Shown here piece after piece: positions 7,784 through 14,506 of a stretch of DNA of 14,506 bases (position 1 is its first letter; every line of letters begins with the position of its first letter). Location: positions 1 through 14,506 of the IMG/VR virus record IMGVR_UViG_2554235189_000015. One strand, 5' to 3'. The notes under the pieces were generated by a model that made no database searches, was not told the DNA's origin, and saw only the letters and a program-made list of their open reading frames with translations. The DNA comes from a virus (taxonomy: Duplodnaviria; Heunggongvirae; Uroviricota; Caudoviricetes). Both the position numbers and the translations under genes were made by a program.

Positions 7784-9627
7784 TGAAAGTAACTGCAAAC
7801 GGTAAGACATTTACCTTTCCTGATGGTACGAGCACCGAAGATATTGGCACCGCCATTGATGAGTATTTTGCTGGTCAGGCTGTTCAGCAACAAACAGTTA
7901 ATCAGGCCAATAATGCACCAACACGGGAAGAACCATCATTGATGCAACAAGCTGGTGATTGGCTCACTGGTGGTCAAAGTGCAGGGAAAATTGCGGAACA
8001 GGCTGGTCGTGGTCTGGTAAACATACCATTTGACGTATTGCAGGGCGGCGCAAGTCTGATTAATGCAATCAGTCAGGGGCTTGGTGGACCCAAGGTTTTG
8101 GATGATGTTTATCGTCCAGTAGACAGACCGACAGACCCCTACGCGCAAGCCGGTGAAACAATTGGTGGGTATTTAGTTCCAGGAGTTGGAACGGCAGGAA
8201 GCATGGCTATTGGATCACTGGCAGAGGCCGCAAATCAGAAAGGCGATTTCGCACAAAATGCAGCTAAAAATGCCGGAGTTAACCTTGCCGCTCAGGGTGT
8301 TCTTTCCGCAGCAGCAAAGGGAATAGGGCGTGGAATAACGGCTATAAAAGGTGATATTGCGCCAGAAGTGGCGAAGAAAATTGCCACATCAGAATCGATG
8401 GGCGTGACACCAATGACATCTGATGTTATCCCGCCGAAAAATGCTTTTACTCGCGGCCTAACTCAGGATGCCGAGGGGGCTTTGCTCGGGACAGGCTCAA
8501 AGCGAGCGGAGCAATATGCAACGCGTAGTAAGCTGGTAAGTAATTATTTTGACCGTTTTGGTGAGTACAACCCTGATGATGTGGTGAAATCTCTTACCAC
8601 CACGTTAAGGGGGCGGAAGGATGCCGCTGGCGCTGTTATCAATGACGTCACCAATAAAATGGGTAATGCCGCAGTTGATACCACAAATACCATGAATGCT
8701 CTGAATACAGCGATCGCAAGACAGGAACGGCTTGGGACGTCTGCCAATCAAAGCCTGCTTACATCCTTGCGTAACCTACGTGAAGAATTAGCAAACCCTG
8801 CAACTGATTTGGATGTTACGTTTGATCTCTTGCGTCAGCACAGAACAGCATTTAGATCTAATGTTCAGGGAGATGCTATGGTCTTCCCCAACCAGGCAAA
8901 AGCAGCTACCAATATGGTAGAGAATGCAATGTCAAAAGACCTTCGTAACGCAGTTGCTAAAAACCTCGGTGCATCAGACGCAGCAAAATACCTTAAAGCA
9001 AATTCCGATTATGCAAACGTTTATAATAAGGTGCTTAATAAAAACATTGCCAACAAGCTCAACAAGGCAAGCAGTGAAGCCAGTCCTGAACTTATAAATA
9101 CCGTTGTATTAAGCAGAAAACCATCTGACGTGAAACGAATCTGGAGCGCACTGGATGATAAGGGGAAAGATGCTATGCGTGCAGCTTACGTCAGCAAAAT
9201 AGCGGAAAAGGCCGGGGACTCTCCAGCCAAGTTCATCACTGAAGTTAATAAGCTGAAATCTCAGTCAGGCGGTGAAATTTACAACACTATTTTTTCTGGA
9301 AAGCACATGAAAGAGCTTGATGCTCTTCATGAAGTTCTACAGCAAACAGCAAGGTCAGACACCGCAAATGTAGTAACTCAGACGGGGCAATCGCAAGCCA
9401 ACAGGATAAGGACGATTGGCGCAACTGCGACCCTTGGCGTATCAATGGGGCTTGAGGCTGGTTTTGGTGCAATGATGCGCTTGTATGAGTCCAAAGCAGC
9501 AAGGAATGCTCTCTTACGCCTGGCAAACACTAAAACTGGAACGCCAGCTTATGAAAGAGCGCTAAATAATGCTGCAAATGCGATACGCCCTATACTTTCA
9601 AGCCAAATTACAGCAGAACAGCAATAA
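7780..9627 (+). CDS. Ejection protein, P22 gp16-like
   Basis: 615 aa in the syntenic position (P22 gp16 is about 609 aa). Start overlaps the gp20-like stop (ATGATGA), consistent with translational coupling. Confidence 0.75.
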
Positions 9628-9641
9628 AAGATAAGATATAA

Positions 9642-10127
9642 CTACCTGATATTACTGCTACTGTTGCATGTTACCGTGTTTCCAAATCCTGAATTGCAGT
9701 TTGTATATGTGTCAACGCGTGTTGGGTAAGGTTGAGTTATAACAGGCTGGCGCGCTTTTTGCTCGATCGCTTGCATTGTGTTTACAGCCTGATAATTCAA
9801 TAAAGCCTGCTGGAATGCTTGGCTTTGCGCTATTTGTTGGGCTTGCTCTTGGCTTTGTAATTGAACATAAAGATTTTGAAGCTCAAGTCTTGCCTGTGCG
9901 TCACTTATCTTACCTTCATCAACACCTTGCCCGAGCATCTTTGCGGCAAGGACATACAGCTTAGGTGTTGGTGCAGACGCCATGCGTGAGTCGTTCTTCA
10001 CACTGGCATCAAGGCAATTAGCCATATCGCTAAGCTTTTGATAGCGTTGTTCGCAACTTGCTTGATAGTCACTTACTTTTGCGCATCCAACCAGAAGAAG
10101 CGGGATAATTAACAGTGATTTTTTCAT
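9642..10127 (-). CDS. Phage-encoded lipoprotein of unknown function (candidate superinfection-exclusion factor)
   Basis: Start assigned to the internal Met at 10127: MKKSLLIIPLLLVGC is a classic signal peptide with lipobox LVGC, and a strong SD (AAGGAGAG) lies about 8 nt upstream. The track start at 10163 has no SD. The mature protein is Gln-rich with four further cysteines. Occupies the position of sieA in P22 (between gene 16 and mnt, opposite strand to the late genes). Confidence 0.75.
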   Translation of the reverse strand: MKKSLLIIPLLLVGCAKVSDYQASCEQRYQKLSDMANCLDASVKNDSRMASAPTPKLYVLAAKMLGQGVDEGKISDAQARLELQNLYVQLQSQEQAQQIAQSQAFQQALLNYQAVNTMQAIEQKARQPVITQPYPTRVDTYTNCNSGFGNTVTCNSSSNIR

Positions 10128-10197
10128 ATGGCTAACTCTCCTTAGTTTTTCACAGGATATCATGAAGGAAATGCCATTTTAGCCGGAAACTAGATTT

Positions 10198-10464
10198 CTA
10201 TGTTTCCTTTTTATTATTGCTATACATGGTCTTAAGCGTTTCAAAAACCATTTTCTTAACCATATCAGATTGTTGTTCTGCCATACGCTCTGCATCGTCA
10301 ATGTAAACGGATGCAGAGCTTTGTTTAGCCAATGATTCTTCAATCGCTGCAATTATCTCTGAGTTCAGCGACCTGTTATTCATCTTCGCACGCTGCTTAA
10401 TTTTCGCGTGGAGTTCATGCGGAAGTCTCAAGTGAAACTGCGCCTCGTCGTATTTGCTGTACAT
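10198..10464 (-). CDS. mnt: Mnt-like ribbon-helix-helix repressor
   Basis: Clear similarity to the recalled P22 Mnt sequence: FHLRLPHELHAKIKQRAKMNNRSLNSEI versus FNFRMPMEVREKLKFRAEANGRSMNSEL, and DDAERMAEQQSDMVKKMVFETLKTMY versus NDAERLADEQSELVKKMVFDTLKDLY. Start placed at the internal Met (10464, 88 aa, GGTGAGG about 9 nt upstream), which aligns with the Mnt N-terminus. The alternative start at 10497 would give 99 aa. Confidence 0.85.
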   Translation of the reverse strand: MYSKYDEAQFHLRLPHELHAKIKQRAKMNNRSLNSEIIAAIEESLAKQSSASVYIDDAERMAEQQSDMVKKMVFETLKTMYSNNKKET

Positions 10465-10585
10465 CCTTGATGCCTCACCAGTTGGGTGGAATGGCATCGT
10501 AACCTACTGGATAAATACTCAATAGTACCATTTCTGTATGCAATCACATCATGGTTGCATCATATCATTCGTCTGGAGCAATGAA
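10465..10585. promoter_or_regulatory. Divergent intergenic region between mnt-like gene and tailspike; candidate promoter/operator region
   Basis: About 120 bp of non-coding DNA between divergent genes. Contains the inverted repeat ATGCAA-N11-TTGCAT (10538-10560), a CACC-N5-GGTG element (10476-10488) and a GGAG SD (10575-10578) for the tailspike. No confident -35/-10 pair could be assigned by eye. Confidence 0.3.
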
Positions 10586-12652
10586 ATGTCAGATATCACC
10601 GCAAATGTTGTGGTAAGCATGCCTTCGCAACTCTTCACTATGGCGCGTTCTTTTAAAGCGGTTGCCAATGGCAAAATTTATATCGGTAAAATTGACACTG
10701 ATCCGGTAAATCCTGAAAACCAGATTCAGGTTTATGTGGAAAACGAAGACGGTTCTCACATTCCTGTTTCGCAACCAATCATCATTAACGCTGCTGGTTA
10801 CCCGGTATATAACGGGCAGATTGCCAAGTTCGTAACTGTGCAAGGCCATTCTATGGCTGTATATGATGCGTATGGTGCGCAGCAGTTCTATTTTCCTAAT
10901 GTGCTGAAGTATGACCCTGACCAACTAAGACAGGAGTTAGATGGTGTTGGTGGGGTTAATTTAGTAAATGGGGCATTACATGGTGCCATGGATTCAGATC
11001 CAAATGTTGGTTTTAAAATCACCACATCCTCAGGTGAGATTTACGAATATGCTCCGGGAATTACAGGTCTTGCCGATGGGTTTTCGGTATCAGCATCACA
11101 GTTATATTTAACAAGGAATGGCCTATCTTATAAATACTCTTCACCTCATAACACACTGGTTTGGCCATCTCAGTATATCGATACGAGTGCTGATGCGAAA
11201 TATTCAATTGAATCTATTATGGCGCACGGATTGAATGTGGACCTTAACGGAACTACAGTTAAAGCCAGCACCATTAATATTACGAAAGATTTGATTAATG
11301 GTGAAATTGTTGCTATCGGAGATGAAGGATCATTTATAACAGTAAACTCATGCATGCTTAACAATATTAAAGTTAACTGCAATATGATGGCAATTAGAAG
11401 GCCTGTTCATATCAAAACAGGGGCTGTTAATCCAGTAGTTAAGAATGTTGATGTTTTTGATAGTAATGGTTCTCAACTAACTTATGGTATTTTCATAGAT
11501 GCAAATTCTGTATTGAATTTTGTCGTTGATAACATATCAATACATAATATTACCACCATTGGAAATGGTATTCAGGGTGATGTAATTGGGCCATGTCGAG
11601 GGATTCTTGTAGGAACGGCACTTGATCCAGTACCATCAAATGATGATGAGGTATCAAGTGGAGTTATAAGTAACGTAAGGATTTACAAGCTAAACCCTTG
11701 GGAAGATGCTGATGGTGTTGTTATTCAGATTTACAACTCATCATCAAATATGCTCAGCGGGAAGAAAATAAAGGTTGATGGCGTTTATACTTACAATGCA
11801 CTTAAGCGAGCAGTCAAAGTTCAGGCCAATGATGTTACAGTAACAAATGTATTTGCGGTTTGTGATGACGCCTCAGCAACTAACCCTATGTATAGTTGTG
11901 TTAGTGTTTATGGTAGTTCCTGTGTTGTTCGTGGTGTTAGTGGGCGAGGAAGGATTGGCAATGGTGTTGATTCATCTGATGGGTTCAATACTATCAGTGA
12001 TGTTTATCTTAAGACGACAGCAACCTATGAGCTAAGCGCAGGTCTACAGATAACTTCCGGGCAGGTAAACGCGAATAACATTCACTCTGAAGGATCAAGA
12101 TACATAGTCGCAATTCGGGCAGTTAATAACACAACACCGTATGTAAATATTAATGGCATATATGGGCAAGGTTATGACGGGGCGATTTTGTTAGAAATCA
12201 GATACGGATTTAATATTGGTAATGTTTACTTAAGTGATATTTCAGTATCAAGTTCAAATCCCACAAGGTCTTCATTCTTCTTTGATATATTATCAGGTGG
12301 AAGTATATCTCTGATCAGCGTGTCAGACGTCAAGAGAATCAGTCAGGCATTTAACGGAGCAGATATAAACATTTCTGGTGGGGTTGCAAAAGCTATTGTT
12401 AAAAATTCAGTTTTTGAGAGTGGTTCGTCAAGCGTTGGTGTATCAATGACAACTGGTACTTTAGTTGCATCAAATATATCAGCACAAAGTAAATCTTATG
12501 CTGTCAACGCTGTACAAACCACAAATTCACTTATAAATAACATTGATGGAATCGTTAGGGTTGATAGCACAACCAACAGTAATGTCGGCCTTTACAGAGG
12601 GATTACCTCTGTTGGGACTAACACAGGACTGAAAACTGTTTTCTATCAATAA
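10586..12652 (+). CDS. Tailspike protein: P22-type head-binding N-terminal domain plus divergent receptor-binding/depolymerase domain (predicted beta-helix)
   Basis: The N-terminus from Met 10586 ([57 protein letters not shown]...[13 protein letters not shown]...NVLKYDPDQ) matches the recalled P22 gp9 head-binding domain. GGAG lies 7 nt upstream. The remaining roughly 570 aa are AT-rich and rich in Asn/Ser/Val/Ile/Gly, as in parallel beta-helix depolymerases. The track start at 10538 adds 16 non-homologous residues and was not used. Confidence 0.9.
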
Positions 12653-13204
12653 TTATATATAACCTTTTGATGTTTTATATGATGTTATCTTGGCAGGGAC
12701 GCCAGCAATAGTGCAATTTCCATCTTTAAAATCTTTGTTAACGACTGCATTCGCGCCTATTGCACAATTGTCACCTATAACTATCTTTCCGTAAATTTTT
12801 GCTCCAGGACCAATGTAGCAATTATCACCAATTACAGGGGATTCAAGTCCTGCTCCAGCTGATGTGCCAATATTCGTACCTACATGAATTCGGCAATTTG
12901 CACCTATCCTGGCTCCTGCGTTAACAACTATGTTACCATAATGTGGTATTGATAACCCTGGACCAAAGGTATTGATAGGTATTGAAAATCCAAGTTTCAT
13001 TTGAATTTTGCGTAACCTAAGTCTTGTAATCAGAATTAAAACTTTATTTCCTTTGCAATTAGTAAGATACTCCAACCTCCTTAGCAATCTAAGGAATCTC
13101 CATATATCGTTGAATATTATATTTTTTAACCTTGACCCCTGAAGCCTCATAGCCTTTTCGTCAAGGAGAAGGTATGACTTGTAATCTTCCTTGCTGCTTA
13201 TCAT
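12653..13204 (-). CDS. Hexapeptide-repeat (left-handed beta-helix) acetyltransferase, CysE/WcaB/NeuO-like; candidate lysogenic-conversion enzyme
   Basis: The C-terminal half has tandem hexapeptide motifs typical of LbH acyltransferases (NAGARIGANCRIHVGTNIGTSAGAGLESPVIGDNCYIGPGAKIYGKIVIGDNCAIGANAVVN). Strongly AT-rich. Lies between the tailspike and int/att, where P22 has gtrABC and Sf6 has oac. Start is uncertain: Met at 13204 is preferred (184 aa, weak SD); the track start at 13258 adds an odd hydrophobic leader. Confidence 0.8.
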   Translation of the reverse strand: MISSKEDYKSYLLLDEKAMRLQGSRLKNIIFNDIWRFLRLLRRLEYLTNCKGNKVLILITRLRLRKIQMKLGFSIPINTFGPGLSIPHYGNIVVNAGARIGANCRIHVGTNIGTSAGAGLESPVIGDNCYIGPGAKIYGKIVIGDNCAIGANAVVNKDFKDGNCTIAGVPAKITSYKTSKGYI

Positions 13205-13348
13205 TCTATGCTCGCCAGAAATGTGAATAGGTGTAAAGATTAAGAAAAACCTCAACATTTTGCAAGATTAAGGTTAATCATAGTAAATGACAGTTGATCT
13301 GAATGCGCCTTAAGACTACTGTGTATGCATGCAGTGATGTAGGTGGCA
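13205..13348. promoter_or_regulatory. Spacer between acetyltransferase and int 3-prime end: candidate attP region / acetyltransferase promoter
   Basis: In P22-like genomes attP lies between the conversion locus and the 3-prime end of int. This AT-rich spacer contains a 9-bp direct repeat AAGATTAAG (13236-13244 and 13264-13272) and a related TTAAGA at 13310-13315. No tRNA-like core could be recognised by eye. Confidence 0.25.
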
Positions 13349-14506
13349 CTACCCCTCCTTTTCATCAAGCCAATCCGCCCACCACTGCATCATTTCTCTG
13401 CGCTTATCGAGATACTGAGCATGGTTGTAAATTCCACGCACAGAACCGCCGTTGGCATGTGCCAGTTGCACTTCAATGGCGTCGGCAGGCCATTCGTGCT
13501 CGTTCATAATTGTGCTGAATTCATGCCTGAATCCGTGACCGCTTTCCAGACCCTCATAGCCGATTTGTTTGATCACAAGCAATACCGCGTTCTCGCAGAT
13601 TGGCTTCTTCTTATCGTTGCGCCCGGCAAAAACAAACTCTGATACTGGTTTGGTGATTGAGCTTAGCGTAGTGAGAAGTTCAACCACCTGGTCTGACATA
13701 GGAACCACATGAATTTTGCGTCCCTTCATCACACTGGCGTCGATGGTGATAATCCTGTTTTCAAAATCGACGTTCTTCCATAGCATGGAACGAAGCTCTT
13801 TCGTTCTTAGGGCTGTGTAGCGTAAAATTTTAGTAGCAATGAGCGATACGATACTTCCTGAAAATGTTGCAAGTGCTTTGTTGAATGCCGGGATCTGGTC
13901 GGCAGGTAAAAATGGGAAGTTCTTCTTGCGGTATCCCTTCATGGCGTCAGCAAGGTCAGGTGCCGGGTTATATTTAGCCCTACCAGTGACAATAGCGTAA
14001 CGGAAAACCTCGCCGCATCTTCTGCGGGCTTTGTTGGCTCGCTCCATTGCACCGCGATCTTCAAATCTGCGGATTACTTCCAGCAGTTGCATCGGCTCAA
14101 TATCCTGAATCTCAAGGCCGCCGATGATGGGTAAAATGTCGTCATCAAACATTTTGGCAAGTTCAGTTGCATAGCCTACTGACCAGACTTGCTTCTTGTG
14201 CTCGTACCATTCCTTGTAAATCGCACTAAATGAATTGTTGTTAGACGAAGCCTTTTTCGCTTTTACCGGATCGATGCCAACCGAGATGTCTTTCCTCGCA
14301 GTCCATGCTTTATCCCTTGCCTCCTGCAAAGTCATAAGTGGATATTTTCCGACGGTCAGGATTTTCTCCTTACCGTCAATCTTGTAGCGAAGCTGCCATA
14401 CCTTTTTCCCGGATACAGGGACATAAAGGTACAGGCCATTACCATCGAGAAGGCGGTATGGTTTTTCTTTCGGCTTTGCTGCTTCAATCTGCTTAACGGT
14501 GAGCAT
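13349..14506 (-). CDS. int: Tyrosine integrase (P4/P22 family), apparently full length
   Basis: 385-aa ORF. The N-terminus (MLTVKQIEAAKPKEKPYRLLDGNGLYLYVPVSGKKVWQLRYKIDGKEKILTVGKYP) is the typical arm-binding domain of P4-type integrases. The C-terminus carries the catalytic region (HGFRHEF ... LAHANGGSVRGIYNHAQY). The ATG is the reverse complement of the last three bases of the window. Confidence 0.92.
   Translation of the reverse strand: MLTVKQIEAAKPKEKPYRLLDGNGLYLYVPVSGKKVWQLRYKIDGKEKILTVGKYPLMTLQEARDKAWTARKDISVGIDPVKAKKASSNNNSFSAIYKEWYEHKKQVWSVGYATELAKMFDDDILPIIGGLEIQDIEPMQLLEVIRRFEDRGAMERANKARRRCGEVFRYAIVTGRAKYNPAPDLADAMKGYRKKNFPFLPADQIPAFNKALATFSGSIVSLIATKILRYTALRTKELRSMLWKNVDFENRIITIDASVMKGRKIHVVPMSDQVVELLTTLSSITKPVSEFVFAGRNDKKKPICENAVLLVIKQIGYEGLESGHGFRHEFSTIMNEHEWPADAIEVQLAHANGGSVRGIYNHAQYLDKRREMMQWWADWLDEKEG

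Follow-up and report, generated by a model that had tools for sequence, protein, structure and literature searches.

In phage P22, the immI region comprises the genes mnt, arc, ant and sar together with the promoters Pant and Pmnt and the operators Omnt and Oarc. It is located between gene 16 and gene 9, and mnt lies on the strand opposite to the late operon. The genome paper of phage epsilon34 names this interval the 'ant moron' and describes ST64T, ST104 and Para1 as having nothing there but mnt and one gene of unknown function (PMC2629481). A lone mnt gene, divergent from the tailspike gene and separated from it by a spacer of 121–136 bp, is known from the Salmonella phages L, ST64T, ST104, SE1 and ST160 (PMC2629481, PMC8022706). 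Both the epsilon34 paper (PMC2629481) and the genome paper of phage L (PMC8022706) pose the same question, namely whether such a lone mnt is a relic or has been put to a new use; we found no experimental test of it in the published literature. In the P22-like BTP1 prophage the leftward antisense RNA STnc6030 is transcribed in the same interval between the injection and tailspike genes and gives superinfection exclusion (PMC7067206). The BTP1 interval contains no ORF of more than 60 aa and its effect is RNA-based, whereas the locus described here encodes a conserved protein; the analogy is one of place only.

The 14.5-kb stretch of DNA analysed here (the window) covers the end of a P22-like prophage (Lederbergvirus) that carries the late genes; the prophage is probably integrated beside a tRNA-Arg. 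The genes for scaffold, coat, gp4, gp10, tail needle, gp7, a gp20-like and a gp16-like protein follow one another in this order on the plus strand. On the minus strand there are a lipoprotein gene (9642–10127; phrog_6067, signal MKKSLLIIPLLLVGC) and, upstream of it, the mnt homologue (10198–10464; 88 aa and a stop codon). The tailspike gene (10586–12652, plus strand) encodes a P22-type head-binding domain (Head_binding, 1e-66) followed by a different receptor-binding part. Then follow, again on the minus strand, a gene for a hexapeptide-repeat acyltransferase (12653–13258), between the tailspike and integrase genes, and the integrase gene (13349–14506; Phage_integrase, 2.8e-39). The same gene order, ending in intS beside tRNA-Arg, is found in E. 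coli chromosomes. The acyltransferase gene occupies the site where P22-like phages carry O-antigen modification genes and is probably a serotype-conversion gene.

As in P22, the mnt homologue is located between homologues of genes 16 and 9 and opposite to the late-operon strand. It is divergent from the tailspike gene across a spacer of 121 bp (10465–10585), and the earlier note was correct in describing an Mnt-like repressor which directly adjoins the tailspike gene and has no arc or ant partner: P22 Arc and Ant gave no tblastn match anywhere in the 14.5-kb window. The sar template, i.e. the arc–ant junction, is missing from the window as well, and an Rfam search of 9500–10800 with E ≤ 10 returned only noise and no sar. 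Neither arc, ant and sar nor a strong Pant overlapped by Omnt, as in a complete P22-type immI, is present; mnt is the sole immI gene between the injection and tailspike genes and adjoins the latter, as in the mnt-only form of the ant moron. The region is most likely a deletion-reduced immI module of a P22-like (Lederbergvirus) prophage. By its sequence it represents a sister orphan lineage among the mnt-only remnants of immI that are already known. The arrangement is common, has been described before (PMC2629481, PMC8022706) and is not unusual. The earlier note had also considered that an arc/ant pair might be found elsewhere in the full genome. This was pursued in Sf101, the closest complete phage with the module, and its complete genome encodes no Arc or Ant homologue.

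The window gene encodes a ribbon–helix–helix protein of the Mnt family with the Mnt tetramerisation domain. The protein matches the Pfam families Arc (PF03869; 1.1e-14, 54.4 bits, cutoff 20.4) and Repressor_Mnt (PF11423; 3.9e-12, 46.1 bits, cutoff 20.9) as well as the PDB structures 1mnt (N-terminal domain, 5.7e-19) and 1qey (tetramerisation domain, 1.2e-6), and it has the fold of P22 Mnt, with a ribbon–helix–helix N-terminal domain and an Mnt-type C-terminal tetramerisation helix. It had been called well conserved, which has to be qualified, as the identity is 90% with Mnt of Sf101 and IME10, 57% with that of L and ST160 and only 47% with that of P22. P22 Mnt reportedly contacts its operator through Arg2, His6, Asn8 and Arg10. 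This set of residues is not retained in the window protein: in the alignment, positions 6, 8 and 10 are occupied by Gln, His and Arg, as compared with His, Asn and Arg in P22, and the N-terminal arm (MYSKYDEA) differs as well. The strand that reads the DNA has the sequence QFHLR in the window protein and HFNFR in P22 Mnt. The changed contact residues would predict an altered DNA specificity and are no argument against membership in the Mnt family. Pfam matches of the protein to HicB and FitA span the ribbon–helix–helix domain only. We also considered a ribbon–helix–helix antitoxin of a toxin–antitoxin pair and rejected it, as a toxin partner is absent: the gene downstream is the lipoprotein gene here, and there is none in Sf101.

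The window contains a minus-strand ORF from 10198 to 10497, within which the true mnt start is almost certainly ATG 10464 (88 aa) and not ATG 10497. This position aligns with the N-termini of the Mnt proteins of P22, L and VSe13, it is preceded at a distance of 8 nt by the Shine–Dalgarno motif GAGG (10473–10476, minus strand), and the PGAP annotation of E. coli ZY22049 likewise gives a protein of 88 aa. The 99-aa ORF starting at ATG 10497 was rejected since its extension is not conserved, being interrupted by a stop codon in the L type, and since this extension would precede the start site of the Pmnt-like promoter. The labels 'partition protein ATPase' and 'chromosome segregation ATPase' are in wide use for Mnt homologues (phrog_795 and the RefSeq entries of P22, ST64T and Sf101), a propagated mis-annotation of a ribbon–helix–helix repressor of 83–88 aa. 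The Sf101 gene carries the annotation 'chromosome segregation / partition ATPase' and is absent from the Sf101 paper.

Using megablast, we found the mnt–spacer–tailspike junction with 97% identity in Sf101 and IME10, and at least 243 complete E. coli genomes contain at least 80% of positions 10150–10720. Essentially the same module (97% over 10230–10700) is present in Sf101, IME10 and prophages of E. coli and Shigella at argW or sbcB. These modules share with the window the 121-bp spacer and the hairpin described below; they differ from it in having G instead of T at 10535, and in Sf101 the lipoprotein gene that follows mnt in the window is missing. In 69 loci the spacer has a length of exactly 121 bp regardless of the tailspike type. 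The same architecture with a more distant Mnt is found in Gally, VSe13, L and ST160. The L/ST64T type is found in Salmonella and the window type in E. coli and Shigella. The two types share a perfect or near-perfect dyad at the Omnt position, but the L/ST64T type belongs to another Mnt clade (57% identity), with QFNLR instead of QFHLR in the protein and GACC instead of TACC in the dyad, and its P22-type leader CCGTAGCC...GCTGCGG is absent from the window.

One locus with a QFHLR-type Mnt (L251) retains the final 66 codons of ant, of the P22 type, between the dyad and the tailspike gene, which we regard as direct evidence that the orphan layout originated through deletion. In the L-type spacers the P22 Omnt region is joined directly to the P22 gene 9 leader (CCGTAGCCAcGCTGCGGcgATTCCTTGCATCTGGAGCA). 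The comparison supports the view that the window module is derived from immI and has lost arc and ant. The prophage of E. coli O104:H4 2011C-3493 (L384) is 97–98% identical to the window up to position 10128 and again from 10572; in place of 10129–10571 it carries, at its positions 25525–28056, a different ribbon–helix–helix gene (NPQVNLRLP type) with arc and ant. Because the flanks match and the interior differs, the stretch 10129–10571, comprising mnt, its promoter, the dyad and the hairpin, is an exchangeable mosaic cassette bounded where the similarity to the O104:H4 prophage stops and resumes.

For a wider comparison about 277 loci with Mnt homologues were gathered from IMG/VR and GTDB. 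The ORF has a length of 83–88 aa in nearly all loci and, in a set of about 250, is intact with few exceptions. Calculated according to Nei–Gojobori, dN/dS of the window gene is 0.10 against VSe13, 0.16 against P22 and 0.25 against Escherichia sp. E1V33, and the mean pN/pS inside the orphan clades is 0.24–0.30; between these clades the synonymous sites are saturated. The gene is under purifying selection, with dN/dS of about 0.1–0.3. Thus, of the suggestion that the region is a decayed immI, the loss of arc and ant can be upheld, with the ant remnant of L251 as a trace of it, while decay of the gene itself is contradicted by the selection and by the intact ORFs.

These data also bear on the view, left possible for mnt in the phage L paper (PMC8022706), that gene and site are neutral leftovers of a recent deletion and are functionless now. 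Such a relic would go along with the fact that our searches identified no target, with the decay seen at some loci (L092 and L093) and with the core mutation in the dyad of the window. Nevertheless, dN/dS is as low as 0.1–0.3 between orphan lineages whose synonymous sites are saturated, the ORFs are intact in nearly all loci, and two orphan clades have different dyads, each internally conserved, so that we consider a neutral relic quite unlikely. The module in L092 (Citrobacter) is truly decaying, with a truncated Mnt ORF and a mutated dyad, and in L093 (Symbiopectobacterium) the dyad is degenerate; both are useful negative controls for the conservation found elsewhere.

In all lineages the spacer shows the same order of elements away from the mnt ATG: the Shine–Dalgarno sequence GAGGCATC, which is conserved in all orphan lineages, a −10 hexamer TAnnAT, a −35 hexamer beginning with TTG and, directly beyond, a dyad. 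This is the layout annotated for Pmnt and Omnt in P22. In the window the dyad GTACCATTTCTGTAT is located at 10525–10539, i.e. at the position of P22 Omnt, and is the most conserved stretch of the spacer. The earlier note remarked that the inverted repeat does not resemble the P22 Omnt palindrome, and nothing like the sequence of P22 Omnt is indeed present; the comparison with P22 Pant and Omnt which the note proposed places the dyad at the Omnt position and reveals a Pant −10 element without the −7 T. As a match in a single sequence the dyad is not significant (74/200 shuffles).

The dyad varies together with the DNA-reading strand of Mnt. Proteins with HFNFR are associated with the dyad AGGTCCAC-N-GTGGACCT with the core GTCC (18 loci; ant in 18/18, arc detected in 17/18). 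Those with QFNLR have AGACCAC-N-GTGGTCT with the core GACC (about 70 loci), and those with QFHLR, among them the window, Sf101, VSe13, Buttiauxella and others, have GTACC-N5-GGTAY with the core TACC (about 165 loci); arc and ant occur in none of the loci of either class. The consensus for the QFHLR family is GTACC(A/G)TTT(C/A/T)GGTA(T/C). The three cores, of which GTCC is that of P22 and TACC that of the window, are equidistant from the dyad centre and nearly invariant in their class, while free variation is seen at the central base in the HFNFR and QFNLR classes and, in the QFHLR class, at the symmetric positions 6 and 10; just downstream of the dyad the conservation falls away. Such a pattern is the signature of a protein-binding site which would have co-evolved with Mnt, with the three main classes representing few independent events. 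The likely Mnt operator is therefore not the inverted repeat at 10538–10560, proposed before as the candidate, but the dyad at 10525–10539, itself a candidate from comparative evidence. In the window a G to T change at 10535 turns the right core GGTA into TGTA. This allele occurs in 7/162 of the QFHLR loci counted, is accompanied by no change of the Mnt protein and may weaken binding at one half-site.

The inverted repeat itself is real. It consists of the arms ATGCAATCA and TGGTTGCAT around the loop CATCA (10538–10560, plus strand), with 9-bp arms, one T·G position and a 5-nt loop, and its size is unremarkable for a single sequence. A distance of 25 nt separates it from the tailspike ATG, and the subfamily with the 121-bp spacer shows it conserved. 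With these properties it could be the Mnt operator, through which Mnt would directly control the tailspike gene or the read-through into it, and Villafane et al. have speculated that Mnt and Arc may influence the read-through to gene 9 (PMC2629481). However, the repeat is missing from other spacer families with a QFHLR Mnt, which retain the TACC dyad, and its arms are unrelated to that dyad. Among 16 distinct spacers pairing is kept in 97.2% of the cells, with 4 cells unpaired; one change is double (G-C to U-A), and seven are one-sided and retain pairing through G·U. Since G·U pairs are formed in RNA, these seven changes point to the RNA of the plus strand rather than to a symmetric DNA site. 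In addition, there is no credible rightward promoter, the former one lacking a key −10 base in every orphan lineage, so that there is little support for a control of the tailspike gene by Mnt. A role of the repeat as operator is hence highly improbable, and it is probably, though with weak support, a leader hairpin of the tailspike RNA.

In other families, P22 included, the tailspike ATG is preceded at a comparable spacing by another small hairpin (in P22 CCGUAGC-CAU-GCUGCGG). Folding energies of the tailspike leaders were indistinguishable from those of shuffled sequences, with z-scores from −0.07 to −1.5. Many P22-like phages (L type and VSe13 type) have the short sequence CCGTAGCCAyGCTGCGG, which can form a hairpin, in front of the ribosome-binding site of the tailspike gene. 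It occurs twice in P22 (L004), flanking the region after ant, and its position agrees with that of the 'boundary sequences' annotated in CUS-3 and of the deletion junctions. In the window, the tailspike Shine–Dalgarno motif GGAG is at 10575–10578 (plus strand). The first base of the hairpin is also the first base of ATG 10538, an in-frame start that would lengthen the tailspike gene by 16 codons (10538–10588); this start is probably unused, because it has no ribosome-binding site and because the head-binding domain begins with MSDIT in all relatives. At loci L030, L038, L046, L061, L090, L205, L212 and L218 an HNH endonuclease gene of about 550–600 bp is inserted in the tailspike frame a few codons from its beginning, after ATGTCAGATATCACC, and the tailspike resumes from a new start downstream. 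This looks like the insertion of a homing endonuclease.

Promoters in the spacer were evaluated with a consensus scan and with a heuristic matrix of our own, whose scores serve as a consensus argument only. Since nothing in the spacer exceeded the shuffled background in either, the promoters were assigned by P22 homology alone. By alignment by eye against the annotated P22 promoters, the Pmnt equivalent would be located at 10496–10522 on the minus strand, with the −35 hexamer TTGAGT (10522–10517) and the −10 hexamer TACGAT (10501–10496). It scores weakly in the matrix scan, and its hexamers are separated by 15 bp in the window subfamily as compared with 17 bp in the VSe13 type; the TTG of the −35 and the TAnnAT of the −10 element are kept in all lineages. 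On the plus strand, the remnant of the rightward Pant (10491–10519) would consist of the −35 hexamer ATGGCA (10491–10496) and the aligned −10 hexamer TAAATA (10512–10517), in which the −7 T is lost. P22 Pant has TTGACA-17-TATATT. All versions of the Pant −10 element in the orphan lineages (TAAATA, CAAATC, TGTATC and TGCATC) lack the −7 T; the subfamily of the window has a weak alternative −10 hexamer AATACT (10514–10519) 17 bp from ATGGCA. With the heuristic matrix P22 Pant scores 15.3 and P22 Pmnt 11.9, as against a shuffled median of 7.9, and the best rightward candidate scores 6.0 in the window and 6.7 or lower in any orphan spacer. The old rightward ant promoter thus looks dead.

Alternative leftward promoter-like sequences are found at 10559–10592 (minus strand), namely TGaTATGAT (10567–10559) and CTGACA-17-AATGAT (10592–10564). 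They do not exceed the shuffled background either; the TATGAT is kept in 19/19 spacer variants of the subfamily. The choice of promoter matters for the role of the dyad. With a start from one of the sequences at 10559–10592, the dyad would follow the start site, and Mnt would act as a simple autorepressor; with the Pmnt-like promoter, the centre of the dyad falls near −43.

Taking these observations together, the balance tips slightly in favour of an autoregulated Mnt which binds as a tetramer at 10525–10539 and silences residual rightward starts, with the tailspike expressed by late read-through. In detail, a leftward promoter in the spacer would supply Mnt in the lysogen, and Mnt would bind the dyad as a tetramer, with one dimer on each TACC/GGTA half-site. 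Mnt of P22 reportedly binds as a tetramer and acts on Pmnt. The dyad would be placed over the start point of the former Pant and, relative to the Pmnt-like start, about 43 bp upstream, so that the bound Mnt may set its own level and block any leftover rightward initiation towards the tailspike gene. The tailspike would be expressed, as in P22, by antiterminated transcripts of the late operon which read through mnt in antisense. Weak points of this model are the Pmnt-like hexamers, which are only 15 bp apart and score poorly, and the core change at 10535. Furthermore, if Pant is dead, the silencing of rightward starts cannot explain the continued selection on mnt.

The selection could be explained if Mnt acts in trans: the Mnt of the prophage would repress the ant promoter of superinfecting relatives with the same type of operator and so keep an incoming antirepressor from inducing the resident prophage. 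Mnt naturally has this function in lysogens of P22 (PMC2629481), purifying selection on a gene without a linked target fits a function in trans, and L251 shows that ant was once linked to a Mnt of the QFHLR type. On the other hand, arc and ant are present in 0 of about 235 QFHLR and QFNLR loci, and 80 Ant-encoding loci, sampled with at least 68% identity of Ant, have no TACC or GACC dyad at the promoter (0/80), the 3 matches elsewhere being at chance level. The perfect palindrome GTACCGTTTCGGTAC has 105 matches in IMG/VR, approximately the number expected by chance, and none is near mnt, arc, ant or a tailspike gene. TACC-N5-GGTA occurs once in the 38.7 kb of Sf101, in the mnt–tailspike spacer, and no antirepressor is annotated in the ZY22049 prophage. 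Immunity in trans therefore appears unlikely to us as the main function.

A further explanation starts from what is transcribed together with mnt. The gap of 70 bp between mnt and the lipoprotein gene (10128–10197) contains no predicted terminator, and none is predicted further on until the homologue of gene 16 is reached at its 3′ end. The lipoprotein gene may thus be co-transcribed with mnt, and the autoregulated mnt promoter could serve to express such cargo, or an antisense RNA against the end of the late operon by which related phages are excluded, or both. The lipoprotein gene sits at the place of P22 sieA, is common to the O104:H4 prophage, Gally and VSe13, and could be a superinfection-exclusion or conversion gene. 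However, mnt is not always followed by the same gene: only about 30% of the QFHLR loci have the lipoprotein gene, and in Sf101 mnt is the sole gene between the injection and tailspike genes. Because of this variation a fixed cargo does not explain the retention of mnt, and a role of the RNA only would leave the purifying selection at the protein level unexplained. We give this explanation little credence, no more than immunity in trans, and continue to prefer the autoregulated repressor.

For the window alone the finding is of little import, as the arrangement is common and has already been sequenced. The comparison, nevertheless, turns the published question of relic or reuse, raised for mnt of phage L, into statements that can be tested: the gene is under selection, an operator is predicted at a defined place, the old ant promoter appears to be gone, and the repeat at 10538–10560 would be a separate element. 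It also flags the propagated 'partition protein ATPase' mis-annotation across many database records. For a well-studied DNA-binding fold it points to three natural specificity classes. More speculatively, and we put this forward as a doubtful proposal, the lone Mnt proteins may constitute at least two old maintained lineages with a specificity unlike that of all sampled ant-linked Mnt, and thus a distinct class of prophage regulators instead of relics. If so, candidate roles would be a roadblock which tunes the late read-through into the tailspike gene, or the trans-repression of antirepressor genes of other phages, and HFNFR/GTCC, QFNLR/GACC and QFHLR/TACC would represent a natural recognition series for ribbon–helix–helix proteins.
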